A DNA stretch of 64,000 bases, from positions 24,981 to 88,980 of the forward strand of contig JACQLQ010000004.1 of NCBI GenBank assembly GCA_016204045.1, written 5' to 3'. The stretch is from Parcubacteria group bacterium. GTDB taxonomy: Bacteria; Patescibacteriota; Minisyncoccia; Phycocordibacterales; UBA2135. Shown in pieces: positions 2,514 to 53,019 of the stretch. The notes beneath the pieces were generated by a model. That model saw only the letters and a list, made by a program, of their open reading frames with translations. It ran no database searches and had not been told where the DNA came from. The first letter of the stretch is position 1; each line of letters starts with the position of its first letter. A program made the position numbers and the translations under genes.

Positions 2514-5500
2514 TTGGTGCCTATGGGAGACGAGCTTCTTTTTGAGGGTAAAAAATATGTGTCGGCAAGACGACTTGCTGAGGGAAGCAAATATTCAAGC
2601 GATCACTTGAGTCGACTTGCTCGTGCTAAAAAAATTGACGGTAGGCTTATCGGCCGCAATTGGTTTATCAACCCAGATTCAATAGAAGTCTACCAGCAAC
2701 AATTAAACGGGGATCATCTTTTCAAGGGCGGTGAAAAAAGTTTTGAAAATGAGCAAAGCCGGGAAGCCGACACTACTCAAACCAATAGCCCTAGCACAAT
2801 AGAGCCTACTCCAAACCCGTCCGAGCATGTACAAGTGGACACTCTGCAAAATCCAGTTATTGGAGAGAACGCCGCAGTTACAATCCCAATTACAACTGGT
2901 GTTGAGTTACTATCAGAAATTCCTGAACCATTAAGGACGGAAAGCGCTATAGAACTGACACCGCCTAGCATTGAAACAGATTCATGGGACAATCTCCTCC
3001 TCGGGTCATTAAAAGAGGAAGAAAACAAAAAAGATGTCGTCACAACAGCATCACCACTACCGACGCCAGCTTCGGTAGAACAACCTCTTACAAAGCGGGT
3101 AGCTGATGTTGAAGTCTCGAAAGAAACCGAAACTCCATCAGCATTCGAAAAGTTTCGGGGAACGGGAATGCAGATACTGCGACATGCCAGCAACCTACCT
3201 GTTCAGGCCTGGCAGGCGAGCATGCCATTTATTGAGCTAGGAAAACTGGCGAAAGGGGTTGTGACAGGGTTCCTCATGGTTTCCGCCTTGGGGGGTGGGG
3301 TATATCTGCTTAGAGATACTCCTTACACGACGTACACGACCCTGTTCTCGAACGTCCTAGTGGCAACTCAAGGTGGGGGAGAAAGAATAGCTTCGGTACT
3401 TGCTTCTGGGATGGAAAACGCGACACATCGCATTACGACAGTGGGCAAGGGAAGTATGGAAATCGCCACCCACCCCAACCACTTCTTTTCACGTACACAG
3501 GAAGTTCTAGCCCAAATCATCGATGTTGTCGGGGCAAGTGCTACATATGCATCTGATAGTATCCTGCGACAATACCACCAAATACACACTCGCATATCTG
3601 ATACGAAACAACTAACCGCCGCTCTGCTTGATATCCCGGGAGGTGTGGCTCGTAACCTGTATGACACGATAACGTCACTTTTTGATGGCAATGATGCCAC
3701 GCCGACGACGCAAGACAAAAAAGGTACGCCTGTTACAATCACCGAGAAAGATATCGAAGAGGCGCGCCGGAAACTTCTTGGAGAAGAATCGGGCTCGACA
3801 CGGGCTAACCCCGCTATTGCGGAACCAACTACAAACACGCCGTTGAGGCAAGTCCAATCTGAAATTACACGGCTACAAAATGAGGTGAACCAACTTAAGC
3901 GTTCCGGGATAACGATTGAGTCACCTGTGGCACCCAAACTCGTGGAACGTATTGTCGAGCGCGTCATACCCGGTGTCACACAAACCAACCTCGATGATCA
4001 ACTGAATATCTTGCGAGGGGATATTGCATCTCTACGAAACTCCACCACACAACAAACAAACACAATATACCGTACAGTGGCTCTTTCTCAGAAAATCGAC
4101 CAACTGAACGATGTCACCCTAACTTCTATTACTGTCTCGGGAGTGTCAGGACTCACCAATGCAGACATCCCCGATGACATCACTGTATCGAACTACCTAC
4201 TCCTCACTGGAGGTACGATAAGTGGAAACTTACAAACGACAGGGACCCTCACTGCTTTTGAAGCGGCAACCATTCCGTCGTTCTCTGCCACATCAACAAC
4301 GAATGCTTCAACCATCAACTATCGTCTAGGTATTGGGACATCTTCTCCGTATGCCGCACTTGCTGTAGTGGGAGAAACAGTTTCCACCTACTTTACCGCA
4401 ACCTCAACTACAGCAACCTCTACTTTCTCTGGCCAAGCAGTCTTTAACAATACTCCTGGAGCTCCCCATACATTTGCTTCGTGGGCGACAGGAGTTGCTG
4501 GTGCACAACCGCTTGTTGCTCCACTTGTTGTGAACCCTGCCTCTGCGGGTTCTGATACCAACCTTATTTCCGCTTCTGTAAACGGTGCTGTACGGTTCTT
4601 GATTGACGCCGAAGGAGATATCTATGCGAACGGTATCTTCTCTACGGGAGGCACCACGCTCTCCACAACAACAGCGTCAACCTTTAGTGTGGAAAACAGT
4701 GCAACCCTTGGTGATGCTACGACGACCGACAGCACCTACTTCAACTCACGTATTGGATCTTCACTTATCCCCACCGTGAACAACCTTCTTGATATCGGAG
4801 ACACCACAAATGGGCTTGCGTGGAGGACGGGTATCTTTGCTACATCGCTCGGTATAGGAACGACCTCACCGTGGGGAGTACTCTCTGTAGACGCACCCTC
4901 TACTGCAAACAACATTACTCCCATCTTTGTCGTGGCTGATAAGGGCACCTCAACACCTTTTATCTACGTGTCTGGGATACAGGGAGATGTGGGAATCCGC
5001 ACTAATACTCCTACGTATGCCTTGGATGTGGCCGGTTCAATCCGCGCCACCTCGGTCATTGACGCTTCCTACTTTAGTGCTACCTCAACGACTGCAACCT
5101 CTACCATCGCAGGCTTCCTCGACATTACAGGGACGAACTCGACGTCTACCATATCGGGAGGACTCGACGTCCTTGGCGCTCTTCGTCTTGGCTCTTCACT
5201 CTCGCTCACGTCGACGACGGCAACCACCACACTCGCAGGAGGTCTCGCTCTAGAGACCACCGGCTTCGTCTATGATTTTTCGTCAAACAACGTAGGTATC
5301 GGTACTGCTGCTCCCGGAGCACAACTCCACCTTAACACCGCCTCAGGACAGAATGCCTTCCGCATTGGTTCAACGACCGATCAGTTCATTGTGAACAATG
5401 TAGGGAATGTGGGGGTTGGGACCACATCACCTGGTTCTCTCTTCTCTGTCGACGGTGGGGGAGCCCTCATCACCAACACCAGCTCAAGCCACTCCTTCTA

Positions 5501-7844
5501 TGTTGAAGATGTTGCGGATGATACGACACCGTTTGTGATTGCAAGTAATGGACAAGTCGGAGTAGGAACGACGACAATGACATCTAATATGGAGCTTGTC
5601 ATCCACGGAGATGGTCAAGACGCGAACATCCAACTAGGAAGAAGCAGCGGTGCCCTGTTTGATATTAGGGCAGGACAAGTGACCGAAGGAGTACTTTTCG
5701 CGCTGACCGGGGGCACGGGCAATATGGACTTTTATCACGGAAGTACGATGAATGTACGGTTTGCCAACAGTGGTAATGTTTTCTTCGGCGATTCTTCAAA
5801 TGCCAACATGACGCAGGGGCTTACGATTAACCAAGCTGGAGCCGATAACCAGGCACTTGCCTTTAAATCTTCTGACGTCTCTCACGGCATAACGTCTCTT
5901 GTCGAGCTAGATACCTATGGCGCTCTTGATAAGGCAAGTGGAGACGACGGGGGTATCGAAATCACCGGTTATTCAGAGGATACAGCCGCCTATGCTATCT
6001 ACCTTACGGGGTATGCAGGTACAGCGAACACTGCAAAATCTACGTCTGCTGTAGCACCCACTGTCGTGTATTCTGGAAAAAGAAGCGGCACCTCTGTTGC
6101 TTCCGTAGGTACTGATGGAAACCTGCTGGTAATTCAGGATGTTGGTAGTACCGAATGGCTCGTTGATGCTGAAGGCGATACTTGGCAGAGCGGGGGAGCC
6201 GGGTTTGCCACCTCAACTGCGTGGGGACTTGTCTCAATCGAAAACACCGGATCCGGACCCTCGTTCGTTGTTTCTGACCAGGCGAATGATACGAGTTCAT
6301 TTGTGATTAATACGGATGGAAAAGTCGGAATTGGAACAAACAACCCGTCGTATCCTCTTCACGCAAGCTCGTCTGCCACTGTCGCTGCGCAATTTAACGT
6401 TACCGACGGTACTACGCCTCAAACGGGGACAATTCTCCTCACAACTACTGAAGCGAGAACCGCTGGCCAAGGGGTCTCTATTTCCTTTAATACGCCGACA
6501 ACGGCACCTTCCTTTGAGGACTCTTCAGCAATAGGCGGCCTTGCAGAGGACTCCGTTACTGGGAATCGAGGGGGTTATCTCTCATTTTGGACAAGACCAA
6601 GTGGCGACACACTTCAAGAGCGGCTTCGTATCACAAGCGCAGGCGACGTTTGTGACGTTGGAGGAGTTGATGCCGACTTTACTGACTGCGCCTCTGATAG
6701 TGCTTTCAAGGAAGATATCGTCGGGTACGAATACGGATTGGAAGAACTCCTTGAGCTACGTCCCGTTGAGTTTAGTTGGAATGCGTTAGCACAAAGCAAG
6801 GGATATAAGGGCGGTGTGCGCGTCAACGGTTTTATCGCTCAGGAAGTGGAGACGGTCTTGCCATCCTGGATTAGCACTAACATAGAAGACGGTGGGTACA
6901 AAAAGATTGACGGTGCGGGGGATCTTCCACTTCTGCTCACCAAATCAGTTCAGGAAATTGCCGCCCGTATTAGTCTCACCTCCGCCCCCACCACAACCCC
7001 CTCCCTCTACATCGACTCGGAAGGTCGCCTCGGGGTGGGCACCACAACCCCCGCCTATACCCTCCATGTCATAGGAGATGTGGCGGCAGAAAGTTTTGTA
7101 AACATTTCAACCAAAGAGGCGAAAAAGGACATTTCGTACCTGGGGCATCTCCAGAAAGAATCGCTCTATGAAAAACTCAAAGACTTGGGGGTTGCAACAT
7201 ACTACTACGAACACGAAGATGCAAGCGATGACCCCGAACGTCTTGGGTTGATTGCTGAAGAAGCGCCTGAAGAGGTACTCGCAAAAGGGGGCAAGGGTGT
7301 AGACCTCTATAAACTTGTTACCGCTCTTCTAGCGGCATTCCAGACGCTTGCAGAGAAGGTGGAGAAGCTTGAAGATGCGGCCGTCACCGGTGTTGCGGCA
7401 GTAACTAATTCCTTTAGCGAATTATTCGCGAGCAAGTTGACCATAACCAACCTCTTGTGCTTGGGAGACACCTGTATCGGCGAATCGGAACTGCAGTCAC
7501 TCCTCACTAATGCGGGGTTAATCGCGACATCAACAACTCCAGTAGTTGAAACCCCAGACGATGAAGAAGCGCCCGATACTGAAGCGCCGACGATAACTAT
7601 TACCGGAGCGAACCCCGCGGAAATTGAGCTTAATGCCGCATATTCCGACAATGGTGCGACAGTCGCAGACAACGTAAACGGCAATCTCGGATATACAACA
7701 TACGTTAATGGCATCCTAATGACGCCAGTCCAACTTGATACAGCAACAACAACCACACATCTTATCGATTACGTGGCTACTGACAGCGCGGGAAACACTG
7801 CCACATCAACACGAACAGTGAATATTGTCGCGCCGCAAAATTAG
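2514..7844 (+). CDS. Giant (1776 aa) membrane-anchored surface protein: tail-fibre-like beta-helical repeats, two tandem intramolecular-chaperone (Peptidase_S74-like) domains and a C-terminal Ig-like DUF5011-like domain
   Basis: Single uninterrupted ORF. N-terminal about 230 aa is cytoplasmic. One TM helix (GVVTGFLMVSALGGGVYLL). At least 7 repeats of (V/I)G(I/V)GTxxPxxxLxV. Two copies of the S74 motif (S-D-S-A-F-K-E-D-I ... GFIAQEVETVLP and S-T-K-E-A-K-K-D-I ... LIAEEAPEEV). C-terminus TITITGANP...YVATDSAGNTATSTRTVNIV resembles DUF5011. Confidence 0.8.
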   Translation: MVPMGDELLFEGKKYVSARRLAEGSKYSSDHLSRLARAKKIDGRLIGRNWFINPDSIEVYQQQLNGDHLFKGGEKSFENEQSREADTTQTNSPSTIEPTPNPSEHVQVDTLQNPVIGENAAVTIPITTGVELLSEIPEPLRTESAIELTPPSIETDSWDNLLLGSLKEEENKKDVVTTASPLPTPASVEQPLTKRVADVEVSKETETPSAFEKFRGTGMQILRHASNLPVQAWQASMPFIELGKLAKGVVTGFLMVSALGGGVYLLRDTPYTTYTTLFSNVLVATQGGGERIASVLASGMENATHRITTVGKGSMEIATHPNHFFSRTQEVLAQIIDVVGASATYASDSILRQYHQIHTRISDTKQLTAALLDIPGGVARNLYDTITSLFDGNDATPTTQDKKGTPVTITEKDIEEARRKLLGEESGSTRANPAIAEPTTNTPLRQVQSEITRLQNEVNQLKRSGITIESPVAPKLVERIVERVIPGVTQTNLDDQLNILRGDIASLRNSTTQQTNTIYRTVALSQKIDQLNDVTLTSITVSGVSGLTNADIPDDITVSNYLLLTGGTISGNLQTTGTLTAFEAATIPSFSATSTTNASTINYRLGIGTSSPYAALAVVGETVSTYFTATSTTATSTFSGQAVFNNTPGAPHTFASWATGVAGAQPLVAPLVVNPASAGSDTNLISASVNGAVRFLIDAEGDIYANGIFSTGGTTLSTTTASTFSVENSATLGDATTTDSTYFNSRIGSSLIPTVNNLLDIGDTTNGLAWRTGIFATSLGIGTTSPWGVLSVDAPSTANNITPIFVVADKGTSTPFIYVSGIQGDVGIRTNTPTYALDVAGSIRATSVIDASYFSATSTTATSTIAGFLDITGTNSTSTISGGLDVLGALRLGSSLSLTSTTATTTLAGGLALETTGFVYDFSSNNVGIGTAAPGAQLHLNTASGQNAFRIGSTTDQFIVNNVGNVGVGTTSPGSLFSVDGGGALITNTSSSHSFYVEDVADDTTPFVIASNGQVGVGTTTMTSNMELVIHGDGQDANIQLGRSSGALFDIRAGQVTEGVLFALTGGTGNMDFYHGSTMNVRFANSGNVFFGDSSNANMTQGLTINQAGADNQALAFKSSDVSHGITSLVELDTYGALDKASGDDGGIEITGYSEDTAAYAIYLTGYAGTANTAKSTSAVAPTVVYSGKRSGTSVASVGTDGNLLVIQDVGSTEWLVDAEGDTWQSGGAGFATSTAWGLVSIENTGSGPSFVVSDQANDTSSFVINTDGKVGIGTNNPSYPLHASSSATVAAQFNVTDGTTPQTGTILLTTTEARTAGQGVSISFNTPTTAPSFEDSSAIGGLAEDSVTGNRGGYLSFWTRPSGDTLQERLRITSAGDVCDVGGVDADFTDCASDSAFKEDIVGYEYGLEELLELRPVEFSWNALAQSKGYKGGVRVNGFIAQEVETVLPSWISTNIEDGGYKKIDGAGDLPLLLTKSVQEIAARISLTSAPTTTPSLYIDSEGRLGVGTTTPAYTLHVIGDVAAESFVNISTKEAKKDISYLGHLQKESLYEKLKDLGVATYYYEHEDASDDPERLGLIAEEAPEEVLAKGGKGVDLYKLVTALLAAFQTLAEKVEKLEDAAVTGVAAVTNSFSELFASKLTITNLLCLGDTCIGESELQSLLTNAGLIATSTTPVVETPDDEEAPDTEAPTITITGANPAEIELNAAYSDNGATVADNVNGNLGYTTYVNGILMTPVQLDTATTTTHLIDYVATDSAGNTATSTRTVNIVAPQN

Positions 7845-22645: not shown

Positions 22646-22671
22646 TCACAAACTATAGCATTGACCGTATA

Positions 22672-22727
22672 AACAAAAAAGAGCCCCCGCAGCCTCCGTG
22701 TCGAAGCTTTCGCTCGACACGGAGGCT
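22672..22727 (-). terminator. Intrinsic terminator of the GC-rich 558-aa gene (minus strand)
   Basis: Perfect 14-bp stem AGCCTCCGTGTCGA/TCGACACGGAGGCT, loop AGCTTTCGC. On the minus strand it is followed by GCGGGGGCTCTTTTTTGTTTAT. It sits between the 558-aa gene stop and the mraY start. Confidence 0.7.
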
Positions 22728-22795
22728 TTGGGAAGCCCTGCGCACCAGGTTAAGGTGCCAATCTACGCGGTTACTAAAGTGCTACTAGGGTGCGG

Positions 22796-24472
22796 TTAGG
22801 CGCTGGCGGAGCGAGTCTGCTCGCCGACGTCGTCACCTTCGGTCTCGGTCGCCGCGGCCGCCGCCTGCTGCTGCTTCTCGGTCGCTCCGAGGTTGCAGCG
22901 GAGGAAGAAGCGCGCGGGGTTGTTCACCCCCGAGTACCGCTTGCCGGTCTTGTCGTCCGGATCAAGCTCGTAGAAGGACGACCCGGCGGGGATCTCCGCG
23001 AGGAGCACGGCGTGACACGCTGCCACACCGTGGATGATGATGCGAGGCTTGTTGTCCTCGCCCACCACACGTTCCACCGCCATCGGGACCGTACCCAGCT
23101 TGGCGACCGTGGTCTTCGTCCGCGTACCGTCGCGAACGATCTCACCGTCCTTGTAGACGGGAAGCGTCGGCTCGAACTCCGAGACGACGAGGACCGCGAC
23201 GCCAGTGGCACCACCGTGGAAGTCGGCTGCGGAGATGAGCTTCTTGCCCTTCCCTGCGGCCTTCTTCGCGATGGTGGTCACCTCGGTCAGGGCATGCTCG
23301 GCGGCTTCCCGCTCCGCATTGGCGCGCTCGATCAGGACGCGCTCGTGCTTGAAGGCCCGAGACGCGATCATGAACGCGGCGAACGCCGTGCCCTTGTACG
23401 TGGTGCTCGCCTGCTTCGGCGTCAAGCCGAGGTCGGCGATCGCGACGGTGATGCCCGCTTCCGCGATCTGCGTGATCTTGTTGCGGAAGTAGGAGTTGCC
23501 GTGGCCGGCGACGAAGGTGACCTTGCCGTCGGCTGCGGTGACACGCACCTTGCCGCCGTCGTATTGATCGTCACCAGGGTCGGTGACGACGAGGTCACCT
23601 TCCCCACCCTTGTCCGCGACGCCGATGGCGTTGAGGTTCGGGGTGAGACCCTCGTTCAGGGCATCCAGGCTATCGCGCCAACGCTGGCTCGCTTCGCGAG
23701 CAAGCGCCGAGGCGAGATCGCCCAAGACCTCGAACGGGTTCTTGTACGCCGGCACCGCGACACCCTTGACGACGAGGTCCTTGGGCCACGTCGTCCGCAT
23801 GTCGGCTGCCGTCGCCTTGAACTCCGGCGACATCTCGATCCAGCGGTCGCGCCCGACCTTGACGACACCAACCTTGCGGGTGTTGCCGTCGGTGACCGGA
23901 CGCGCGACGCCGAGCGCAATGGCACGATCGGCGACGTGGCCGAGGTCGAACCAGTTGCTGGGGCACAGGAGGGCGATCGCCGTCACGTACGCGAACTTCG
24001 CGTGCCGCGAGATGACCGGCGCCTCATCGGGAGTGAACTGCCCGAAGGAGGCGTTGAAGCGCCGCTGGAGCGCCGAGTCGGCGTCGAGCTTGTCGCGACG
24101 AGCGCGCAGCATGTCCTTCTCCGTCGCCGTGCCACGAGTCGCGAGCTGGCTCGCGATCGCGAGACGGTCCGAACGCTGGCTCCAGACGATCTGGGCAACG
24201 CTGCCCGGAAGGGCATAGAGGACGGAGTTGAACGTGCTGCTCCGCTCGTCCATCTGCTGACGGCGCGCTTCCTCCGCACCGGTGTCCGGTGCGTCGGTAT
24301 GCGTGCCGCCGAGGTCGGCGTCGAGATCGAACACGAGCTTGTCGGTCGCCGCGGGGGCGCCGGCCTTCTTGGTCTGCTTCACGGACTGCTCCTTGGTGGG
24401 GTTGGTCTTGGCATGCTCCAACGCCTCCGCAAAGGAGGTCGTCGATTGACGGCGAGGAGTGCTCTTACCCAT
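22796..24472 (-). CDS. Hypothetical 558-aa protein, GC-rich (about 68% GC, extreme GC3); no recognisable domain
   Basis: The minus-strand ORF has diverse composition. The overlapping 601-aa plus-strand ORF is R/L/G/V-rich with no stop (antisense shadow typical of high GC3). Plausible RBS GAAGGAAACCCAAG upstream of the ATG. K/T/A-rich N-terminus, segments GHGNSYF and IIIHGVAACHAV. Confidence 0.65.
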   Translation of the reverse strand: MGKSTPRRQSTTSFAEALEHAKTNPTKEQSVKQTKKAGAPAATDKLVFDLDADLGGTHTDAPDTGAEEARRQQMDERSSTFNSVLYALPGSVAQIVWSQRSDRLAIASQLATRGTATEKDMLRARRDKLDADSALQRRFNASFGQFTPDEAPVISRHAKFAYVTAIALLCPSNWFDLGHVADRAIALGVARPVTDGNTRKVGVVKVGRDRWIEMSPEFKATAADMRTTWPKDLVVKGVAVPAYKNPFEVLGDLASALAREASQRWRDSLDALNEGLTPNLNAIGVADKGGEGDLVVTDPGDDQYDGGKVRVTAADGKVTFVAGHGNSYFRNKITQIAEAGITVAIADLGLTPKQASTTYKGTAFAAFMIASRAFKHERVLIERANAEREAAEHALTEVTTIAKKAAGKGKKLISAADFHGGATGVAVLVVSEFEPTLPVYKDGEIVRDGTRTKTTVAKLGTVPMAVERVVGEDNKPRIIIHGVAACHAVLLAEIPAGSSFYELDPDDKTGKRYSGVNNPARFFLRCNLGATEKQQQAAAAATETEGDDVGEQTRSASA

Positions 24473-24600
24473 CTTGGGTTTCCTTCTTCAGTGCTCCTTC
24501 GGAACATCCCACAATGGGATGTCTCGTGGAGCGATAAACATACTCAAGGTTACACGAGACCCTGCCTTCTTAGGGGCAAGGTATCTGTAGTATAGTATAG

Positions 24601-24642
24601 CAAATTAAAAGAGCCCTGTCAAGTGCTACCTTGACAGGGCTC
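24601..24642 (-). terminator. Intrinsic terminator of the beta-CASP gene (minus strand)
   Basis: Perfect 13-bp stem GAGCCCTGTCAAG/CTTGACAGGGCTC, loop TGCTAC. On the minus strand it is followed by TTTTAATTTG. Confidence 0.7.
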
Positions 24643-24749
24643 GGGGGGTGCCGATATGGCCTTATTTCGTCAAGCGAGGACGGCAAGTGGAGACGCTTTA
24701 GGCGGCTCCACTTGCTCCGAGCGAAGACGAAATATAAGACGAAGTGCTT

Positions 24750-26210
24750 TTACACCCCAAGGATAAATAAAGAACCGTTTCGATCCCGCGTGGGTGGGAA
24801 ATGTATTTTTGTCTTCCCATCCGCCGCAAATGACGAGGCATCGGCACCCGAAATATAGCGTTGCACACCACGCTTGTCACCATGGACAAAGACCAAATGT
24901 TGCGGGTTCATGCCCCGCGCAAACTGCTCCAGTTGGTCCGTCTCAGCGTGACCAGACATGCGTTCATCGATAACAGTGGCGTTGATCGGATACCACTGCT
25001 TCCGACGGCTTTTTCTGCCATCGGGTAGCTGGATCGCCTTACTCTCGAGGAATCTGTCCGCCATGGCTTCGCGGAGCAAACCTGCTGGTGTGTCCTCACA
25101 GGCGTAGCCTGACAAGAAAACACCATGTCCCCTTATGGGCAAGAGTAGCTTCATCCACTCAACCGCGGCCCCTTGCCCCATGCCGCCAGTTGCGATGACA
25201 ACACCCGACCAACCGGACTTGAGCAGCTTTTCGCGGTCCGCTTGACCTTGTACACCTTGCACGGTGTGCAGATGCGCGCTGGGGAGGAACCCCCTCGTCA
25301 TCTCGGCGACCTTGATGCCGACTCCGTCCAGGAGGATCTTCTCGGGTGGCATTCCGTTTCTCACCAAATCTTCCACAAACCACTGAACGCGATCGCGGAA
25401 TGAAAGGATGAGCGCTATGCCACCATGGTCGACGATGTTTTCTACTCCGGAGAAAAACTCCTCTTTTGCCTCCTCGCGGCTTTTCCGCGATTTGGCATTA
25501 AGATTTGTCGCCTCAGAGATGAGCATCGTTGTCCGACGCATCTGCAAGAAGAGTGCTGGAGACAAGTGCGGGTTCGGGGTAAATGAAATGTCCCCGGTGT
25601 GGAAGATCGTCTCACCCCAGGCTTCGATGCCCGGCGAAACAGATCCCAATGTGTGCCCGGCGTCTGCCGGCAGCAACTTGATGCCTTCCGCGAGTTGGAT
25701 TTCCCGACGCGGCTTAATGAAATTGATACCGCTTTTGATGCGGGCGATGTGCGCACGGGTGAAGCGTGGCGTATGGTCTGCCCACCCCCTCCCCTGCATA
25801 TCTCGCGCATCTTCTTCCCATAGCATCGCCGCAAATGCGGCTGTTTCTCGTGTCATCAAGATGCGAATGGGCAATCCCGGAAATTCCTGCTCCACTCCGA
25901 GCACAATGAGGATCAGTGCACCGCTGTGGTCAAAGTGTTCGTGTGTGAGCACAATGACAAGTTCAGTCACACCTGAACGCAAGAGCTCATAGAGCCCCTG
26001 CATGTCGGGCAAACTCTTGTCATAGTGCTCGGGGTCACGCGACGTTCGAGGGTCGCGCCCCGCATCAATCATGACGGCTATCTTTTGCCGTCCACTTTGG
26101 AGCAAAATCACGTGGCAGCTTGCGCCAATTTTCTGCGCGCCACCAAGGAAAGCAACACTAATACTTCGAGACATCCGTAATGCCTTTCGTCGCTTCGTGT
26201 GAAAGACCAA
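24750..26210 (-). CDS. Metallo-beta-lactamase fold hydrolase of the beta-CASP (RNase J/CPSF-like) family
   Basis: 486 aa. MBL motif 2 VLTHEHFDHSGA, downstream His/Asp motifs, and beta-CASP-like motifs B/C (ERMSGHAETDQ..., HLVFVHGD). Confidence 0.65.
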   Translation of the reverse strand: MVFHTKRRKALRMSRSISVAFLGGAQKIGASCHVILLQSGRQKIAVMIDAGRDPRTSRDPEHYDKSLPDMQGLYELLRSGVTELVIVLTHEHFDHSGALILIVLGVEQEFPGLPIRILMTRETAAFAAMLWEEDARDMQGRGWADHTPRFTRAHIARIKSGINFIKPRREIQLAEGIKLLPADAGHTLGSVSPGIEAWGETIFHTGDISFTPNPHLSPALFLQMRRTTMLISEATNLNAKSRKSREEAKEEFFSGVENIVDHGGIALILSFRDRVQWFVEDLVRNGMPPEKILLDGVGIKVAEMTRGFLPSAHLHTVQGVQGQADREKLLKSGWSGVVIATGGMGQGAAVEWMKLLLPIRGHGVFLSGYACEDTPAGLLREAMADRFLESKAIQLPDGRKSRRKQWYPINATVIDERMSGHAETDQLEQFARGMNPQHLVFVHGDKRGVQRYISGADASSFAADGKTKIHFPPTRDRNGSLFILGV

Positions 26211-26281
26211 GAGTCTTACTCAAGTATACTACTATAAAATAAAGAAAAAGTCAAATCGACTACGTTTTGGGCTGTATATGC

Positions 26282-26319
26282 AAAAACCCTCCGCTGCGCG
26301 TGGAACGCACAGCAGAGGG
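26282..26319 (-). terminator. Intrinsic terminator of the 202-aa gene (minus strand)
   Basis: 14-bp stem (CCCTCCGCTGCGCG/CGCACAGCAGAGGG, two positions G-U in the minus-strand RNA), loop TGGAA. On the minus strand it is followed by TTTTTGCATATAC. Confidence 0.6.
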
Positions 26320-26334
26320 TGTGGCACAAAGTGC

Positions 26335-26943
26335 CTAGACAGAAGTTGGGGCCTGACAGGCCGTGAGGAAAGGGCCATCCGTAAGGACGATCGTGTGACG
26401 CGGCGGCTTCTTCTTTGCCGCATCGCTGTAGCCGCGCGTGTCGATGAGCTCGACGGTGTCAGCGCGCGGCGGCGGGTTGTCATACACGTGGCAGAACTGC
26501 CAGGTGCTTGCCGCCCGCTCAGCGAAGCTTCGCTTTGCGAGCTCAATGTTGGCGAGCATCTCCGCATGCTCCTTCGGTGTCGCCTGAGCCAACCTGTGGT
26601 CGAGCGCGGCTTGCCGCTCGAATGCGAAGTTGGCGACGTACTGCGTGCCCGACGCACGGTCGAGCGACAGACCATGGACACCTGCCAGCACGAAGTCGAG
26701 GGACGCCAGTTGGCCGAGGATCTCCGGCGACACGGCGACAGACGGCAGGTTGTCGATGACCTTCACCCCCGGACGAACACCCTGCTGCGCTTGGCGCGCT
26801 TGCATGGCACCGTTCAGAGGACGCTCGACCAACGGCGCCCCAACGGGTATGACCGACGCGTTCGGGCTGTTGAACTTGAACAGGATGACCCGCGAAACGG
26901 ACCCCCCACTAAGCTCGACTCCACCAATGGTCTTTGTGGCCAT
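26335..26943 (-). CDS. Hypothetical 202-aa protein, GC-rich; start trimmed to ATG with strong SD
   Basis: The ORF-track start (alternative start codon) adds MFYGRRNP. The internal ATG (MATKTIGG...) is preceded by GGAAGGAGAAACCCG (AAGGAG SD, 9-nt spacing). A full-length antisense plus-strand ORF indicates high GC3. Confidence 0.55.
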   Translation of the reverse strand: MATKTIGGVELSGGSVSRVILFKFNSPNASVIPVGAPLVERPLNGAMQARQAQQGVRPGVKVIDNLPSVAVSPEILGQLASLDFVLAGVHGLSLDRASGTQYVANFAFERQAALDHRLAQATPKEHAEMLANIELAKRSFAERAASTWQFCHVYDNPPPRADTVELIDTRGYSDAAKKKPPRHTIVLTDGPFLTACQAPTSV

Positions 26944-26984
26944 CGGGTTTCTCCTTCCGTAAAACAAGGTTCAGATACAAGTGA

Positions 26985-27012
26985 ATTTTATCATATTATA
27001 GACAAAAGTCAA
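26985..27012 (-). promoter_or_regulatory. Promoter-like site for the 202-aa gene: TTGACT-16 nt-TAAAAT (minus strand)
   Basis: Minus-strand sequence TTGACTTTTGTCTATAATATGATAAAAT lies about 40 nt upstream of the SD/ATG. It is near-identical over about 28 nt to the promoter of the native 194-aa gene at 36984..37011. Confidence 0.45.
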
Positions 27013-27041
27013 GCCCCCGGTCGCACGAAGCGGCCGGGGGC
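27013..27041 (-). terminator. Terminator-like hairpin after the NYN gene (minus strand)
   Basis: 12-bp stem GCCCCCGGTCGC/GCGGCCGGGGGC (one mismatch), loop ACGAA. On the minus strand it is followed by TTGACTTTTGTC (a moderately T-rich run that is also the -35 of the next promoter). Confidence 0.45.
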
Positions 27042-27067
27042 ATAATTATGAAAATATAATCAGTTTT

Positions 27068-28321
27068 CTACAGTGTCTGTGCGAGCTGTCCCGAAGAATC
27101 TGTCGGGGAACTCCCAAATATCTGCATGCGTTTCTTCGCCTCGTACGTCACGACGGGGAGGCCGTCGAGGAATGTCACTTCCGAGTGTTTCTTCCATTGG
27201 GCACTAAGTGCAGTTTCCCAGGAGAGAATCCATGGACGTACTCGGATGTTGATCAACCCAGCGAGTTCCTTTACGCGGTTAATTGCGTGAAGAAAATCAA
27301 TATCACCGGTGATGAGTGCGAGTATAAGCTCTTCGCCCTCCACCATCTCACCCATCTGTCTTACGGAGTGGTATACAATGTCCGCGGCCATCAAGGGGTC
27401 GGTGTCAGACTTTTCGTGGAAAATGATCTGGAAACTCCCCCGCGCGGCACTACCCCGCATATTCTTCTGCGCCGCAAAATTCTTCACGAGGCGCGGACTC
27501 GAATATACATACGCCCAACCACCAGCAAGAGAGAGCGGCTCATTCCCCGAAGGTCCGAGACAAACACGATGCATGAGCCCCGCCCAATCTACATCACGCA
27601 ATTCAACAAGGCGCTCTTTGGCGGCCGGGCCCGTAATTGGTTCGACGCGCTCACCGCTAAACTTGCGATTCTTTGCGATAAGCGCCTCGCTTTCTCCGCC
27701 CCTTCTCCGACCAGTCAGATTTGCCGCGTCGACAAAGACGAGTACGCGAGGACGCATCTTCCTCACTGGCGGAGTTTTGTCAGCTGGCGACACTCCCGCG
27801 CCGTGAGCGACAATCTTGCCCCACTCTGCCGCATGCTTCGCGCGCGCGGTAGCCGGTACGACTGCTGCCGGTGCCGATTTGGTTGCACGAGGCAGAAGCG
27901 GTGTTGCTGGCGAACTTGCCCCAGTCTCACTCTCGCCACCCTCTTTCGGAAGCGGTTTCCCATCCCTGCGAAAGATTCGAAACTTCCGCTCCGCTCTGAC
28001 TCCTGCACCACTTGGTGGCGTGGGGGTAGGAGGAGAAGCTACGGCGGTAAGCGGAGTTACGATCTCCTCTGGCCGCTTGATGAAGTGTATTGACTCAATC
28101 GACTTCCCTCTGCCACGGAATTCGAATACGGGCTTTAGCCACTGACATGCGGCTGCCTTATCAATATAGTGACGCCAATTGTTGGGCACATGAAGATATG
28201 CCCGGAAGAGCGTACGACCATCCCCAGCGGCCGTCGCTTTCTCATAAAGATGGCGGTAGACGATCGCGAGATTCTCTTCTGCGGCGCCTGCTCCCCGCTT
28301 CAAAACGGGCCTTGCTGACAT
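27068..28321 (-). CDS. NYN-domain (LabA/MARF1-like PIN-fold nuclease) protein with N-terminal domain and Pro/Ala-rich linker
   Basis: 417 aa. The C-terminal half has NYN signatures: VLVFVDAANL near the domain start and LILALITGDIDFLHAINRVKELAGLINIRV (GD.DF...G, the equivalent of the SgDsDF motif). Residues about 95-190 are low-complexity P/A/T-rich. Confidence 0.6.
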   Translation of the reverse strand: MSARPVLKRGAGAAEENLAIVYRHLYEKATAAGDGRTLFRAYLHVPNNWRHYIDKAAACQWLKPVFEFRGRGKSIESIHFIKRPEEIVTPLTAVASPPTPTPPSGAGVRAERKFRIFRRDGKPLPKEGGESETGASSPATPLLPRATKSAPAAVVPATARAKHAAEWGKIVAHGAGVSPADKTPPVRKMRPRVLVFVDAANLTGRRRGGESEALIAKNRKFSGERVEPITGPAAKERLVELRDVDWAGLMHRVCLGPSGNEPLSLAGGWAYVYSSPRLVKNFAAQKNMRGSAARGSFQIIFHEKSDTDPLMAADIVYHSVRQMGEMVEGEELILALITGDIDFLHAINRVKELAGLINIRVRPWILSWETALSAQWKKHSEVTFLDGLPVVTYEAKKRMQIFGSSPTDSSGQLAQTL

Positions 28322-28368
28322 TGGGCGGCCTCACTTTCTTGTTTAGGTTCGGCTAGGGTTCTTTCGCG

Positions 28369-28396
28369 ATTATGACAGATTTAGCTTATTAGTCAA
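28369..28396 (-). promoter_or_regulatory. Promoter-like site for the NYN gene: TTGACT-16 nt-CATAAT (minus strand)
   Basis: Minus-strand TTGACTAATAAGCTAAATCTGTCATAAT lies 45 nt upstream of the ATG at 28321 and immediately after the dacA-like stop at 28416. Confidence 0.4.
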
Positions 28397-28415
28397 CCTC
28401 GTTATTTGATGCCCC

Positions 28416-36364: not shown

Positions 36365-36949
36365 TCAGCTTGCCGCCGAGGTGGTCTGCCCCTTGAATGC
36401 GGCGGCCTCGTCCTGGACTTGCATCTGCTCATACTCGCTCGCAAGCCCGCCAGCACCGAGGTCGTGCACAACGCGGTTGACGATCCGCTCCCAGTTCGAG
36501 TCGAGCGGAATGTCGTACAACCATGCGCGATACTGCCGCACCTCATTGCCTTGGAGACCAGTGACCACGCTCGGATCAAGGTAACTCGCCTCACCCTTCC
36601 TGAAGAGCTTCAATTCCCCCAACTCGGGAATCGTCGCCTCGATGGTGTTGCCGTCTAAGAAGGGTTGACCTTCGAAGAAGGTGATCACAATCGGATCTGG
36701 GGTCTGTCGAACCCATTCGCTCTGCGGGGTCTTTTTCTCCGCCACCCAGATGACTTCGATGATGTTCTCCCTGCCCTCGCGACGAACCCCCTTCACAGGT
36801 CCACGGAGGACACTGCCGTCCCTACGCATGACTTGGACGTCACCGAATTTCATCTGGGGGTTATTCCCACGCGAGACGACGTCAAACCACGTTATTTGTG
36901 CCCTCATCCTGTTCCTCCAACAAGGTACTTTTCTGCGGCAGGATGCCAC
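36365..36949 (-). CDS. Hypothetical protein (194 aa by ORF track, GTG start; ATG at codon 15 is the likely start)
   Basis: No recognisable domain. Strong upstream promoter TTGACT-16-TATAAT. Confidence 0.45.
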   Translation of the reverse strand: MASCRRKVPCWRNRMRAQITWFDVVSRGNNPQMKFGDVQVMRRDGSVLRGPVKGVRREGRENIIEVIWVAEKKTPQSEWVRQTPDPIVITFFEGQPFLDGNTIEATIPELGELKLFRKGEASYLDPSVVTGLQGNEVRQYRAWLYDIPLDSNWERIVNRVVHDLGAGGLASEYEQMQVQDEAAAFKGQTTSAAS

Positions 36950-36983
36950 AGAAGGTATCGGCCCTTAAGCCGATTATGACTGG

Positions 36984-37011
36984 ATTATATCATAAATAGA
37001 CAAAAAGTCAA
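36984..37011 (-). promoter_or_regulatory. Promoter TTGACT-16 nt-TATAAT for the 194-aa gene (minus strand)
   Basis: Minus-strand TTGACTTTTTGTCTATTTATGATATAAT lies about 35 nt upstream of the ORF start. It closely resembles the island promoter at 26985..27012. Confidence 0.5.
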
Positions 37012-37017
37012 TAATTA

Positions 37018-37043
37018 ACACAGCCGCCCTTAGGCGGCTGTGT
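37018..37043 (-). terminator. Intrinsic terminator of dnaJ (minus strand)
   Basis: 11-bp stem ACACAGCCGCC/GGCGGCTGTGT, loop CTTA. On the minus strand it is followed by TAATTATTGACTTTTTG. Confidence 0.65.
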
Positions 37044-45974: not shown

Positions 45975-47471
45975 CTAATAGTCAAGCGTGCTTTTAACAT
46001 CTATGTCTTGGGGGTTTTCTGGAAACTCCCCCTTCCAGAAGGGCCTGACCATAACTTCGGCCTTTATAACGCCCGAAAACTGACCCATGGCGTTTTTCAG
46101 GCTGTCTTTTGAACGGCCAGTAAGCGCTTCCTTAATCTTCTCGCTATCGAATTTCCAGACAAATTCTGGTTCACCCTTAAGCGAGAACGTAAGATGTGTG
46201 TCTTCCGCAGGATTGAAAGTATCTTTGTTTGCTATGGCAAACGCAAGTGTCGCTACGTTCGCAATTTCAATATCCTCCTCTTCCGTTAATTGCGGGAGTA
46301 GTTTACCGCCGAGGTAGGAGAAAAATGCCTCCCGAGGGAAAAGGATGCCGTAGAGTTTTCCTTCTTCGCGCACAACAACAGTGCGTTCGCTTACTTCAGA
46401 TTCTGCGCTCTTTAACGAGGGAGAAAATTTGATCAGTACTCCTTCGTCAAAAAGAATAAAGTCCGCGGGTTTCTCGGCAATCGCTTTTTCTACTAATTGC
46501 TTTTTGAGCGCACTGCGAAGCTCTTCTCGTATCTTTGTTTCTTCATCCTCCGCAATCGTCTTTACCGCGCCACTAAAGCCACCCTCAAGCGCAGTCGATG
46601 ATCGCGCATAAAATGCGGTATACCTAGGCGTCCCCTTAAAGCCGGGAACGGTAAACTCGGTTTTCTCAATATTGTATCGTTCCCCCGGCAAATCCGCGTG
46701 CACTGTTACTTCCACGCTACCTGGCACCAATGTTCCATCGACCTTGCTTTGACCTGGCACGACGACGGATTCGTAAATCCGATACACAAGCCCGCCCGCG
46801 GCTTCAAAACGGGTGTTGCGTATCAGTCGCTGTTCAGCACTGCTGTAGTTGTTGAAAATGGTGATTTTCCCCGACGCGCGGCGCTCGATGTTTTTCATTT
46901 CTGTTGCATTGACCTGTCGTTCGAGTGCCAAAGAGAGCTGCATCACCTCAAACGCAAGCGCGCCTTTTTCTCCTGGCTTAAGACCGCGCTCTGCGGCAAA
47001 GACGGCATTGAGTGCCATACTCTTTGTGCGTGGGGTGATGATGACCGTTGCGCTCTCAAAAAGCGTCGCAACAGAAAGAATGAGAAAGAGGACCGAGAGA
47101 GATGCCGCCCCCCACAACACGCCTCTTGAGTACCGACGTGGCGCGCCAGGTACTTTCATGGAAAACCCGGGGTGGAGTCCCGCTTCCGCTACTTTTGGAG
47201 TTTCCTTTCGCGCCTCCGGAGCTTTTACCTCCGCAGAAGCTCGATGCTCTTCAGACTTTCCCAATACGGTAGTCGATTTCAGTTCCCCCTCTGTCGTGTT
47301 TTTGGGTGAACGTTCAAATCTTGCGAATAATTTTGACTTCTTTTTGGTTAGAAAGCTATCTCGGGCGGGTAGGCTCCCGGATGGTTCTTTGATGCGGATG
47401 TCATTTATCTTTTTTCGCGGCATACGTGAGGATAGAGATATCCTAAGTATACCATATTTTTCGTGTGTCAA
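45975..47471 (-). CDS. Hypothetical membrane-anchored protein (ORF-track start is TTG; ATG at MPRKKIND about 47423 is the likely start)
   Basis: One TM (LWGAASLSVLFLILSVATLF), then a large extracytoplasmic domain with no recognisable motifs. Confidence 0.45.
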   Translation of the reverse strand: MTHEKYGILRISLSSRMPRKKINDIRIKEPSGSLPARDSFLTKKKSKLFARFERSPKNTTEGELKSTTVLGKSEEHRASAEVKAPEARKETPKVAEAGLHPGFSMKVPGAPRRYSRGVLWGAASLSVLFLILSVATLFESATVIITPRTKSMALNAVFAAERGLKPGEKGALAFEVMQLSLALERQVNATEMKNIERRASGKITIFNNYSSAEQRLIRNTRFEAAGGLVYRIYESVVVPGQSKVDGTLVPGSVEVTVHADLPGERYNIEKTEFTVPGFKGTPRYTAFYARSSTALEGGFSGAVKTIAEDEETKIREELRSALKKQLVEKAIAEKPADFILFDEGVLIKFSPSLKSAESEVSERTVVVREEGKLYGILFPREAFFSYLGGKLLPQLTEEEDIEIANVATLAFAIANKDTFNPAEDTHLTFSLKGEPEFVWKFDSEKIKEALTGRSKDSLKNAMGQFSGVIKAEVMVRPFWKGEFPENPQDIDVKSTLDY

Positions 47472-47588
47472 TCCCGTACGAAGTCGCGAACGCCCCCGTT
47501 CAAGTCAATGAAGTCCGCGGGTTTTTGTTAGGAACGCACCCCTTTTGCCAAGTATCTGCCTCCGTTCGCGTTCTACTTCGTACGGGAT
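47471..47588. repeat. Inverted-repeat element copy 3 (outer arms ATCCCGTACGAAGT/ACTTCGTACGGGAT, inner arms CGCGAACG/CGTTCGCG, about 70-nt spacer)
   Basis: Read from the sequence. It lies between the 398-aa gene stop and the 498-aa gene start. Confidence 0.6.
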
Positions 47589-47604
47589 CAACCCCCGCTC
47601 TCAA

Positions 47605-48801
47605 TTACACGAGGAAGACGGCTCGATCTGCAAAGATGGTTTCGGTGGTTAGGAAGGTGTCATCTTCACGGGGATTAGTAAGTTCAATGTGTGGTGCAAG
47701 TACTTCCCCGGAAAGAACATGGACAGGTACGCCACTATCAGCAAACACCGTCCCCAAAAGTGCCTCCTTAGCCAAGATTGTCTTGAGCCATCCAGCAAAT
47801 GCTGGATCCGCAGAGACAAATATCCCCTGCAGGAGAAAGGGTACGGGTGAAATAGAGGCAAGCGCCTTCCGTATCGCACGTAACAGCACGTCCTCTCGGT
47901 TTTTGACCAACGTTAAGATCCCAGAAGAAACATCTCGAGAGCTTTTACCGGTGAGTACGAGGGAAAGCAGTGATCTTGCCTCAGTCGCAGAGATGTTCTT
48001 TGCTTTCATGACGTCGCGCACAAAGATATTGGTGCCCATCGGAAATGAAAGCACGTCACGGAGCGCCCCGTCTGCGACGAGTCCGATCTCCACCACCTCA
48101 CCGCTCATGCGTACAAGGAGAGAATCGTCCACTTGGGGCCACAAATCGCGCACTCCCGCAAAGAGGGCAAACAGGTGGGAATGAAACGTTATCGGGGCGT
48201 TATGAAAAACGTGCGCGTACCCTTCGCGGATAATGCGGACGACATACTCTGGAGCGAGAGAAAGGTAGAGTGAGAGCGAAAGTTCTGTCCCGCGCTTTCC
48301 TTTTGGTGATACAACGGGATATCCGTTGACGGCTGCGCGCATAACATGTTTCTCGAGCAGCGTGACACTTTCCTTCCCAAAAGCTTTTTCACGAAAGCTC
48401 TCTGCCTCTTTGTCGAGAGATTGCTCCATTATTTCATCAGTAACAGTAAAGGGCTGGTCACGTTTTATCGTAATCGTCTTGGTGGCGATCGCATGCCAGG
48501 GCGCTCCGAGAACACAAACCACCTCGTCGGGTATGGTCCGCGCATATTCTCTGGGCACACGGAGCATCCCCTGTGTGGCAGTATCCTGCAGTACGGCCGT
48601 AAGCGTTGTCCCCATCCCGGCAAAAAATTTCTCAAAGTGGAGCGTGCTCTGAAACGGCATCTCCTTTCTTTTTGTGTAAAAGATGGTTGGTTTCCCGTCT
48701 TTGCGCAAGAGTGCAAGCGCGACTCCGATAGAAGCGCTCCCCACATCTATAATGACAGCGAGTCTTTCTGTCTTGCTACCCCAGGAGGAGAAGATTCCCA
48801 T
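47605..48801 (-). CDS. Actin-like ATPase superfamily protein (FtsA/PilM-like)
   Basis: 398 aa. N-terminal phosphate-1-like AVIIDVGSASIGVAL, later VRMSGEVVEIGLVADGAL. The assignment is weak. Confidence 0.4.
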   Translation of the reverse strand: MGIFSSWGSKTERLAVIIDVGSASIGVALALLRKDGKPTIFYTKRKEMPFQSTLHFEKFFAGMGTTLTAVLQDTATQGMLRVPREYARTIPDEVVCVLGAPWHAIATKTITIKRDQPFTVTDEIMEQSLDKEAESFREKAFGKESVTLLEKHVMRAAVNGYPVVSPKGKRGTELSLSLYLSLAPEYVVRIIREGYAHVFHNAPITFHSHLFALFAGVRDLWPQVDDSLLVRMSGEVVEIGLVADGALRDVLSFPMGTNIFVRDVMKAKNISATEARSLLSLVLTGKSSRDVSSGILTLVKNREDVLLRAIRKALASISPVPFLLQGIFVSADPAFAGWLKTILAKEALLGTVFADSGVPVHVLSGEVLAPHIELTNPREDDTFLTTETIFADRAVFLV

Positions 48802-51687: not shown

Positions 51688-53019
51688 TCAAGACCCCGCC
51701 AAAATATCTATTTGTTTTTGGTACTTCGTCGCGAGGCCCATAACGTCATCACCGTAAAACGCATAAGCGGCTTTCTTGGCGTTGTTCCATCCGGCAAAGT
51801 AGCGGAGTGCTGCCAATCGCTCTGCGTCATATGTCCCCTTTCCGGCACCGTTGTCCTTTAAGAGAAGAGCGGCAGCAAGGAATGCGTGTTTCGGATCCCA
51901 CGGATTTGCGATTTCGACACCGGCAATAGAGGCAACTTGTTTTTCCACAAGGACCCATGTCGAAGGAATGAATTGCGCCGGACCCATTGCCCCGCCCCAT
52001 CCATACCAGGGCTTCGCGGATACGGGCATCCTGTCTGGGTCAAAGCCAAGACGTCGAGTTATCTCCTCGAAGATCGGTCTGTCACGAGTCGGGTGCATAT
52101 CGGTCTTCCAGTTTCCCGTGCCAACGTTTTCACCAAGATTAGACTCTTCGGCGATGACACCGAGAATGAGTGCTGTGCGAATGCCCGTCTTTTGAGATGC
52201 GAAGTTGGCAAGTTCGAGTGCCCGTTCAAAGGGAATTGCGTCCGAACCACGGAGTTGGAAGAGTTCGCTTCGGATTACGGCCGCATCCCTCTCTGTTGCC
52301 GCGACAACGCGGGCATATATCTCCTCATGCCCTTTAGTTATGTCGAGAAGGCGCTTCTTCTCCGCCTTACCCTCAACGATACGACGCTTCTGCAGTTCCT
52401 GGATTTGCCGGAGCTCTTGCTCTTCGGTGCGCTTTTCGGCGAGGGTATCGCGTTCGCGCTTGGTTGTTTGTTTGGTAGATTCTATTTCCTGAAAGGAGGC
52501 GTGGAGGGAGCGATTAATCGAAGCAAACGCGTCAAGGTCATGGAAAAAATCGGAAACATTTTGGTTTGCAAAGACCACTTCAACCACGGTCACCGAATCG
52601 AGTTCGTGAGTCTTCCTGATAAGTTCGGCGAGCGAGTCCTTTTCGCGTTCTAACTTGGCAGACAAATCCCCTATCGTTGCTTCCTTGCCATTGATGTCGC
52701 TCGAGAGACGGCGAATTACGAGATCTCGTTGCCGTATGGAAAGCTCGGCGGCCTCAATCTGCGCATCCAAAATGGCAACATCTCGTTCGAGAGAAACGGT
52801 CTTGCGTTGTTGTTCTCGCAAGATCTCGCGCTGGCGCTCAATCTCTGCTTCGAGCTTCACGAGCTCGCTCTCTAGTTCCGCTCTGCGCTCGAGGACGTCC
52901 GCCCCTGTTGCTTGCCCCAATACGGGCAAAGCCCACCCTGCGGTGAGCACAACAATAAATGACGAGACTATAAGTTTGGAGAAAGGAGACAATGTTACCA
53001 TTGTACCACACCGTAACAC
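51688..53019 (-). CDS. Coiled-coil protein with C-terminal lytic transglycosylase (MltB/Slt-like) domain
   Basis: 443 aa. TM/signal, about 250 aa heptad repeats, C-terminal [16 protein letters not shown] and ...DNGAGKG... motifs. Confidence 0.6.

Follow-up and report, generated by a model that had tools for sequence, protein, structure and literature searches.

The Escherichia coli genes ompA and lpp are strongly expressed and monocistronic and have stabilised mRNAs, while the degradosome scaffold region of RNase E and the assemblies of RNase J and RNase Y are examples of non-catalytic scaffolds or partners in RNA-degrading complexes. Here we describe orf558, a gene for an orphan protein of 558 amino acids found in a 64,000-nt stretch (the window) of contig JACQLQ010000004.1 from a Parcubacteria group bacterium, and compare it with these systems. 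The synonymous sites of orf558 are constrained towards G/C-ending codons of host style and towards extra base pairing. The gene resembles ompA and lpp in its near-consensus promoter, the 5' stem-loop in a leader of ~100 nt, the good Shine-Dalgarno sequence, the strong terminator and the codon bias, but it differs from them in that this bias is apparently not found in the ribosomal-protein genes or dnaK, the protein evolves fast, the body of the message is over-folded, and there is neither a signal peptide nor a known family. Its likeness to the degradosome scaffolds lies in its position beside two predicted RNases, in probably disordered, low-complexity termini and in the lack of a conserved catalytic motif. 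In contrast to those scaffolds, with which it shares no sequence or fold similarity, orf558 belongs to a cassette of genes that appear to be separate transcription units.

Composition and synonymous sites of orf558

The sequence-only reading of the window had described a 558-residue orphan with an extreme G+C content at third codon positions (GC3) and about 68% GC overall. This open reading frame (ORF) is present at 22796-24472 on the minus strand (Table 1), with a measured GC content of 66.7% and values of 0.65, 0.48 and 0.86 for the first, second and third codon positions (GC1, GC2 and GC3). The GC3 is the highest of the window, about 7 standard deviations away from the 42 other ORFs (mean 0.524, standard deviation 0.046, maximum 0.71), and GC1 and GC2 are raised as well, compared with ~0.58 and ~0.39. 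Overall the window has ~50% GC, and the block between 22.8 and 28.3 kb has 55-67%. orf558 is a genuine gene, and the minus strand is the coding one, because its homologues align as proteins, the promoter, Shine-Dalgarno sequence and terminator all lie on this strand, and the proportion of non-synonymous differences (pN) is lower than that of synonymous differences (pS).

Homologues of the protein, P0002, P0003 and P0004, are encoded in three other loci, L001, L003 and L004, respectively. The GC3 of the gene in the four genomes is 0.86, 0.84, 0.83 and 0.88, compared with 0.40-0.55 in flanking genes, and in all four loci the GC content steps by ~0.2 within 100 nt of either end of the CDS, dropping from ~0.65 to ~0.45. 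Codons that end in A account for 3-9%, and AAG, TTC and ATC are nearly exclusive in all four copies. CTC is preferred over CTG 3- to 7-fold in every copy, as in the host background, and GGT and CGT are retained. Between the window and L001, the pS of orf558 is 0.44, while eight of nine other genes have values of 0.69-0.78 and orf210, the small orphan gene described below, has 0.58. The pN for the same comparison is 0.26, and that of flanking housekeeping genes is 0.07-0.19.

The GC3 of the genes for S9, L13, S4 and S13, and of rpoA, infA and dnaK, is 0.46-0.54; S13 alone shows an enrichment in C-ending codons, and the codon use of dnaK moves weakly in the direction of orf558 for many codons. 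Since these ribosomal-protein genes, infA, rpoA and dnaK have such values, the bias of orf558 is apparently not the general high-expression signature of the genome, and neither the ribosomal-protein genes nor dnaK support the view that its GC3 stems from general translational selection alone. The extreme GC3 is an inherited and maintained trait of the coding sequence (CDS), with selection apparently at work, and not a trace of foreign origin. orf558 had been called the most compositionally foreign gene of the window from its letters; it does have the highest GC3, but a foreign origin is not supported, since this GC3 is conserved across the four orthologues, all of them located at one chromosomal site.

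Folding of the orf558 message

We compared the folding of each mRNA with that of dicodon shuffles, in which the encoded protein, the codon usage and all dinucleotides are preserved, taking as energy the mean over 150-nt windows. The stability of the orf558 mRNA exceeds that of 60 shuffles by 12.8% (z = −8.7), and no shuffle reaches the native value. The three other orthologues give z values of −5.1, −5.7 and −7.4, with none of 40 shuffles as stable, and the excess across all four is 10-14%. This excess extends over the CDS except its first 150 nt, where the native message folds less than its shuffles do, as would suit an accessible start. In none of the four cases does the antisense strand score more strongly than the sense strand, and when the CDS was searched for long hairpins or repeated motifs, only a few ordinary inverted repeats came up.

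Nine of ten other genes of the window, including dnaK and the small gene orf210 (z = −0.2), fall within z values of −1.7 to +1.5, and the mraY, ftsW, murG and gltX genes that flank the L001, L003 and L004 copies give values of −1.6 to +1.9. The mRNA of the adjacent beta-CASP gene (see below) is 13% more folded than its shuffles in the window (z = −5.4), with z values of −1.7 in L001 and −0.8 in L004. Because this excess is seen in the window copy only, we do not claim it as conserved.

As had been noticed from the sequence, the strand opposite to orf558 is free of stop codons over about 1.8 kb, and this frame is indeed open at 22790-24595 on the plus strand. Its GC1 of 0.84 is high because it mirrors the GC3 of the sense strand, it has no match in Pfam, and the same frame is interrupted by two stops in L003 and two in L004, the distant homologues. 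On these grounds we rejected the antisense frame as a gene.

Promoter, leader and terminator

A promoter-like TATACT region and a strong terminator belonging to orf558 itself had also been proposed, and both were found and are conserved in the four loci. The promoter (Table 1) scores 11/12 plus the TG, the best value in the scanned region, and the elements TTGACA and TGnTATA(A/C)T do not vary among the four loci, in a surrounding leader that has diverged. Near the 5' end of the leader, ACCTTGCC (24582-24575) and GGCAGGGT (24566-24559) form a stem-loop, and the first 60 nt fold with −16.1 kcal/mol. A stem-loop of other sequence occupies the same place in L001 (−15.9 kcal/mol), and a weaker one is present in L004. 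The leaders of the homologues measure 104-128 nt, with AAGGA or GGAGG as Shine-Dalgarno sequence. At the other end of the gene, the predicted terminator has a folding energy of −45.5 kcal/mol (z = −5.85), a stability reached by none of 200 shuffles, and each of the four loci has a hairpin with a T-run after the gene.

The −35 hexamer of orf558 overlaps the terminator hairpin of the preceding beta-CASP gene, as it also does in L001 and L004. This arrangement could couple the termination of the upstream gene to the use of the orf558 promoter. The small cassette gene has a promoter-like TTGACT-16-TAAAAT with TG, and a terminator at 26320-26286. Three of the best TG-extended promoters in the window sit before its three highest-GC3 ORFs, which are orf558 (0.86), this small gene (0.77) and an unrelated orphan at 36365-36949 (0.72).

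A cassette with two predicted RNases

orf558 is the last gene of a four-gene cassette (NYN, small orphan, beta-CASP, orf558) located between dacA and mraY. In L001 and L004, the two other loci long enough to show it, the order is ScpB, Peptidase_S11 (dacA), NYN-like, small protein, beta-CASP, orf558 homologue, MraY, FtsW, MurG and GltX, so that the survey of the neighbourhood found NYN and beta-CASP genes beside the homologue wherever the flank was sufficient. orf558 is thus co-inherited with the nuclease genes next to it, of which it had been called a candidate partner. On the 3-kb contig of L003, mraY comes after the orf558 homologue.

The proteins of the cassette are mutually homologous across the window, L001 and L004. 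Identity between the orf558 proteins is 60% for the window and L001, and 26-29% for the five other pairs, while MraY shows 90% and 64-70% for the same pairs, so that both proteins group the loci alike. More generally, the cassette proteins diverge faster than their flanks (22-75% versus 64-90% identity). These identities, together with the shared order, indicate that the cassette is old, vertically inherited and fast-evolving.

The beta-CASP protein matches the Pfam families RMMBL (7e-9) and Lactamase_B (2e-8), both above the cutoffs, while its Beta-Casp domain is weak (E 0.02). The residues of its HxHxDH motif (H90, H92, D94 and H95), as well as H186, D207, E233, H421 and H443, are invariant in the three orthologues. 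The NYN family (PF01936) is matched by two of three orthologues of the first cassette gene, with a best E of 6e-5, and the window copy is below the threshold; D198, N201, D308, D314, D340 and D342 are invariant in this protein. Judged by their sequences, both nuclease neighbours look catalytically competent. The small gene has orthologues at 7642-8253 of L001 (47% identity) and 6318-6908 of L004 (29%), with GC3 values of 0.77 in the window and 0.77 and 0.65 in L001 and L004, and no family match in Pfam, PHROGs, PADLOC or NCBIfam.

The spacers of the cassette (22646-28415) are ~100-280 nt long, compared with flanking mraY, ftsW, murG and gltX genes that are 10-25 nt apart or overlap slightly. 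Each cassette gene has a promoter-like site of its own, and terminator-like hairpins follow the small ORF, the beta-CASP gene and orf558. Co-transcription of orf558 with the nuclease genes is unlikely because of these separate promoter-like sites and of the hairpins after three of the four genes. There is no tRNA and no short-range direct repeat in the window, and no mobility gene at the edges of the cassette. PADLOC gave no family at E ≤ 1 for any of the four cassette proteins, and an Rfam scan of 21-30 kb gave only two sub-threshold chance matches.

The closest NCBIfam model to the beta-CASP protein is the archaeal aCPSF1 (1e-30), followed by the type VII Cas14 (1.6e-17), both far below the family cutoffs. 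The latter match (63 bits versus a cutoff of 800) is the point of likeness to type VII CRISPR-Cas systems, which comprise Cas14, Cas7 and Cas5. In contrast to these systems, the match covers the generic metallo-beta-lactamase part and is weaker than that to aCPSF1, and there is no array in the window and no match to Cas7 or Cas5 among the other cassette proteins. We rejected the reading of the locus as CRISPR or type VII, as neither CRISPR arrays nor repeats were found in the window.

Table 1. Positions of orf558 and of the features associated with it in the window
Feature	Position	Strand	Description
orf558 CDS	22796..24472	(-)	558 aa, ATG start, soluble, pI 7.7, without transmembrane segment
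Sigma-70-type promoter of orf558	24594..24622	(-)	−35 TTGACA 24622-24617; 17-nt spacer; extended −10 TGcTATACT 24602-24594
Inferred 5' untranslated region, ~115 nt	24473..24587	(-)	predicted transcription start; Shine-Dalgarno AAGGA 24485-24481
Intrinsic terminator of orf558	22671..22739	(-)	GC-rich hairpin 22739-22680, then UUUUUUGUUU
Antisense open frame, 601 aa, 1806 nt	22790..24595	(+)	compositional shadow, not a gene
Beta-CASP terminator hairpin	24611..24642	(-)	13-bp stem and TTTT; 3' arm holds the orf558 −35 hexamer
Beta-CASP metallo-beta-lactamase RNase gene	24750..26174	(-)	likely start ATG 26174; listed ORF starts at TTG 26210
Small orphan gene (orf210)	26335..26943	(-)	~202 aa from ATG 26943; GC3 0.77; second cassette gene with raised GC3
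NYN gene	27068..28321	(-)	417 aa; diverged C-terminal NYN (PIN-like) domain

The orf558 protein

The protein had been presented as an orphan without recognisable motifs, and profile, sequence and fold searches assigned it to no family or fold. The window protein has no credible match in Pfam, PHROGs, PADLOC or NCBIfam, and Pfam and PHROGs are also empty or inconsistent for all four members. Searches of the sequences in the PDB, either with the protein or with the four-sequence profile, yielded nothing better than noise (ACIII subunit E and Peroxin-14, E > 0.3), and the Pfam scans detected no RNA-binding domain. A model built by AlphaFold with two sequences was unusable, with a predicted local distance difference test score (pLDDT) of 41, while that built with four sequences reached a pLDDT of 62 and a predicted template modelling score (pTM) of 0.40. 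A helical domain, roughly residues 80-230, is predicted with a confidence of 75-89 and a beta-rich domain, roughly residues 390-500, with one of 65-81, and the model includes long helices of 29 and 48 residues (246-274 and 359-406). The regions of low confidence (residues 1-48, 55-71, 265-290, 296-305 and 528-558) are probably disordered. The structure search with the AlphaFold model, which the sequence-only reading had suggested as a check, was run on the PDB and BFVD and produced no match to a common metabolic or structural family, nor any other fold match in these two databases (best BFVD E 0.037, template modelling score 0.11). If orf558 is called new, this is meant narrowly, in that it could not be placed in any known family or fold.

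Two segments of the protein, GHGNSYFRN and IIIHGVAACHAV, had been taken as reminiscent of metal-binding loops. Both are present in the window protein, at residues 323-331 and 478-489, but they are not conserved among the four members. None of the 39 columns invariant across the four sequences is a His or a Cys. H324 of the GHGN string, and H481, C486 and H487 of HGVAACH, are replaced in P0003 and P0004, where the position of the GHGN His is found in Met/Gly or Phe/Gly contexts, and the two strings are limited to the window and L001 pair. Conserved Asp, Glu and Arg residues are D130, E150, E377, E389, D417 and R468. We rejected the metal-loop, RtcB and HNH leads because no His or Cys is invariant and the strings occur only in this pair. 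What recalls RtcB is only a short string, Gly-His-Gly-Asn, and a protein of similar size; the His is not conserved in the orf558 family, and no RtcB match exists by fold or by profile. The window protein has none up to E 0.1 in Pfam and E 1 in NCBIfam, and the four members have none up to E 10 in Pfam. A match to Tox-GHH2 (HNH/EndoVII) at residues 286-354 (E 0.038, 14.7 bits versus a cutoff of 25) has GHG rather than GHH, and was discarded because it is below the cutoff, occurs in one of four members and involves a motif that is not conserved.

Distribution of the family

The orf558 family comprises four sequence clusters in total among about 15 billion proteins, each with one or two members. 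A word-index search of 5.8 billion clusters returned orf558 itself (MBI4118411.1, "Parcubacteria group bacterium", on a 268-kb contig) and one protein 60-62% identical to it, P0002. When the profile of these two sequences was run with HMMER against all 1.84 billion representatives, only P0003 (E 3e-13) and P0004 (E 3e-6) were added. Word-index searches with the four-sequence alignment and with P0004 gave the known members only. Relatives are absent from phage records (tblastn, 50,697 records), plasmids and IMG/VR viral contigs, and no homologue was present in any other taxon searched outside this clade. A phage or virus structural protein (HK97-type capsid, portal and similar) was also considered and finds no support, as PHROGs, BFVD, the phage records and IMG/VR give no consistent match and the neighbours are cellular genes.

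A search of genome contigs with the beta-CASP protein found the L001 genome as its sole result, and the alignment of this protein family, searched against metagenomes, found 19 distant beta-CASP loci (21-32% identity), none of which has an orf558 homologue at E ≤ 10. orf558 is thus seen only in four related groundwater-type Parcubacteria lineages, one small clade. Two of the contigs with a homologue are short and hold little else, namely L002 (Logan SRR12113384, 2455 nt) and L003 (Logan SRR22388032, 2976 nt), which may reflect an atypical composition or coverage of the gene. In the literature searched we found no account of this cassette, nor of a conserved extreme GC3 combined with excess mRNA structure and fast protein evolution in bacteria of the candidate phyla radiation (CPR).

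Possible role of orf558

Our preferred explanation, with a probability of about 0.45, is that orf558 encodes a strongly transcribed, non-catalytic and fast-evolving protein of ~60 kDa that is tied to the adjacent RNases. In this explanation, a near-consensus extended −10 promoter would drive a monocistronic orf558 message, whose 5' stem-loop, open start, GC-rich base-paired body and strong terminator may yield an abundant and long-lived mRNA. RNases whose targets are single-stranded or A/U-rich RNA, perhaps the two of the cassette among them, would have little access to such a message. The protein, which in the model has long helices besides a helical N-domain and a beta-rich C-domain, and whose Lys/Thr/Ala-rich tails are putatively disordered, would most likely be an abundant binding or scaffold partner in an RNA-turnover function of the cassette. 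The non-catalytic reading follows from the 39 invariant columns without His or Cys and from the lack of conservation of the motifs noted earlier. We infer high expression, mRNA stability and a non-enzymatic role from these data, and a putative partnership with the nucleases from the synteny in L001 and L004.

Several points weigh against this explanation. Abundance is read solely from promoter, codon and structure signals, and the ribosomal-protein genes, infA, rpoA and dnaK, at GC3 0.46-0.54, are unlike orf558. The non-synonymous divergence (dN) of orf558 is 0.32, versus 0.07-0.21 in the flanking genes, whereas highly expressed proteins are normally slow-evolving. In E. coli, strong structure throughout an ORF usually lowers the efficiency of translation. 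The cassette genes appear to be separate transcription units, and their linkage could be historical. The structural model is moderate (pLDDT 62, pTM 0.40), and orf558 may possibly be a diverged version of a known fold. Lastly, the invariant set is defined by four sequences in which conserved Asp, Glu and Arg residues exist, and these would be compatible with a possible enzyme.

The main rival, somewhat unlikely in our view, is an abundant structural or housekeeping protein (cytoskeletal, nucleoid-associated, storage or shell) that has no relation to the nucleases and is merely co-inherited with them. Such a protein could well have a promoter and terminator of its own, as the neighbouring cassette genes also have, and long helices and probably disordered tails, as predicted here, are found in many structural proteins; the cassette is surrounded by cell-wall and division genes (dacA, mraY, ftsW and murG), and no RNA-binding domain was detected. 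However, the four genes stay together and in the same order at a MraY identity of 64%, despite their fast evolution, and no known structural protein matches the model. It is rather unlikely that the transcript of orf558 is itself under selection at the RNA level, as a very abundant, compact and GC-rich message preserved in this state over a long evolution (lineages with 64-70% MraY identity), either to survive the adjacent A/U- or single-strand-directed RNases or to act as an RNA decoy or regulator of them, while also encoding a subunit of new fold for a Parcubacteria-specific RNA-turnover module. A conflict or defence module, acting against phages or against the host of the episymbiont, with the nucleases as effectors and orf558 as a fast-evolving sensor or decoy, would account for four proteins that evolve far faster than their flanks, for the presence of two predicted nucleases, and for large spacers with separate promoter-like sites, unlike the tight flanking operons. 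We regard it as decidedly unlikely, since PADLOC is empty for all four proteins, the window has no CRISPR array or repeats, the chromosomal site is fixed in all informative loci and not patchy or island-like, phage or mobile genes are not adjacent, and a sensor gene would not usually have a consensus promoter and an extreme codon bias.

The remaining alternatives concern the origin of the composition and the two motifs. GC-biased gene conversion at a recombination hotspot would make the high GC3 a neutral by-product, and would explain the raised GC1 and GC2 as well as the fast divergence of the protein; the sharp drop of GC at the CDS ends in all four loci, with no decay into the flanks, the codon-specific preferences (CTC over CTG, with GGT and CGT retained) and the base pairing beyond composition, which it leaves unexplained, make it very unlikely. 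A GC content of 66.7% and a GC3 of 0.86 in a window of ~50% GC are also what a recent, unameliorated acquisition from a high-GC donor or mobile element would bring, and a strongly atypical composition is what orf558 has in common with genes of genomic islands. Yet four lineages at 26-29% identity share the gene, its site and its GC3, with synonymous sites elsewhere saturated, and, unlike island genes, orf558 has a syntenic position, a conserved composition, the host preference for CTC over CTG, no associated mobility gene, integrase, tRNA or flanking repeat, and no homologue in the other taxa, phages, plasmids and viral contigs searched that could mark a donor. A conserved GC3, a low pS and host codons form a pattern that a recent transfer from such a donor cannot give, and this highly improbable scenario is already contradicted. 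The same holds, for the GHGN and HGVAACH motifs, of a metal-dependent enzyme (an RtcB-like ligase or an HNH/GHH nuclease), which is scarcely credible: the weak Tox-GHH2 match (E 0.038) speaks for it, but is found in one of four members, H324, H481, C486 and H487 are not conserved, and there is no RtcB match in Pfam or NCBIfam, no PDB sequence match and no fold match.

Atypical GC is routinely read as horizontal transfer, and orf558 provides a case in which an extreme GC3 and an excess of folding have been kept over deep divergence. A fast-changing protein with conserved GC3 and folding points to selection on the message or on its expression. Genes that are specific to a lineage and have no known role are numerous in CPR bacteria. 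Should the link to the RNases prove functional, the cassette would offer a compact system for how an mRNA is shaped to coexist with the nucleases of its own cell, and a view of RNA turnover in reduced episymbiotic bacteria.

Other ORFs of the window

In addition, a 1776-aa ORF at 2514-7844 on the plus strand combines a Peptidase_S74 domain (endosialidase chaperone) with a C-terminal bacterial Ig-like surface domain, an architecture like that of a tail or surface fibre. No Pfam match at E ≤ 1e-5 was found for three large ORFs (498, 398 and 443 aa) at 45975-48801 (-) and 51688-53019 (-), which adjoin the ribosomal-protein/rpoA cluster at 41.4-45.9 kb.

A second orphan ORF with a layout like that of orf558 is present at 36365-37040 on the minus strand, and encodes ~180 aa from an ATG near 36907, with a GC3 of 0.72 and no Pfam match. 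It has a terminator hairpin upstream, a 5' stem-loop with the arms ATCGGC and GCCGAT, and a GGAGG Shine-Dalgarno sequence, and its folding excess is small (z = −1.3). Its putative promoter, TTGACT-16-TGaTATAAT at 37011-36984, scores 11/12 with TG.

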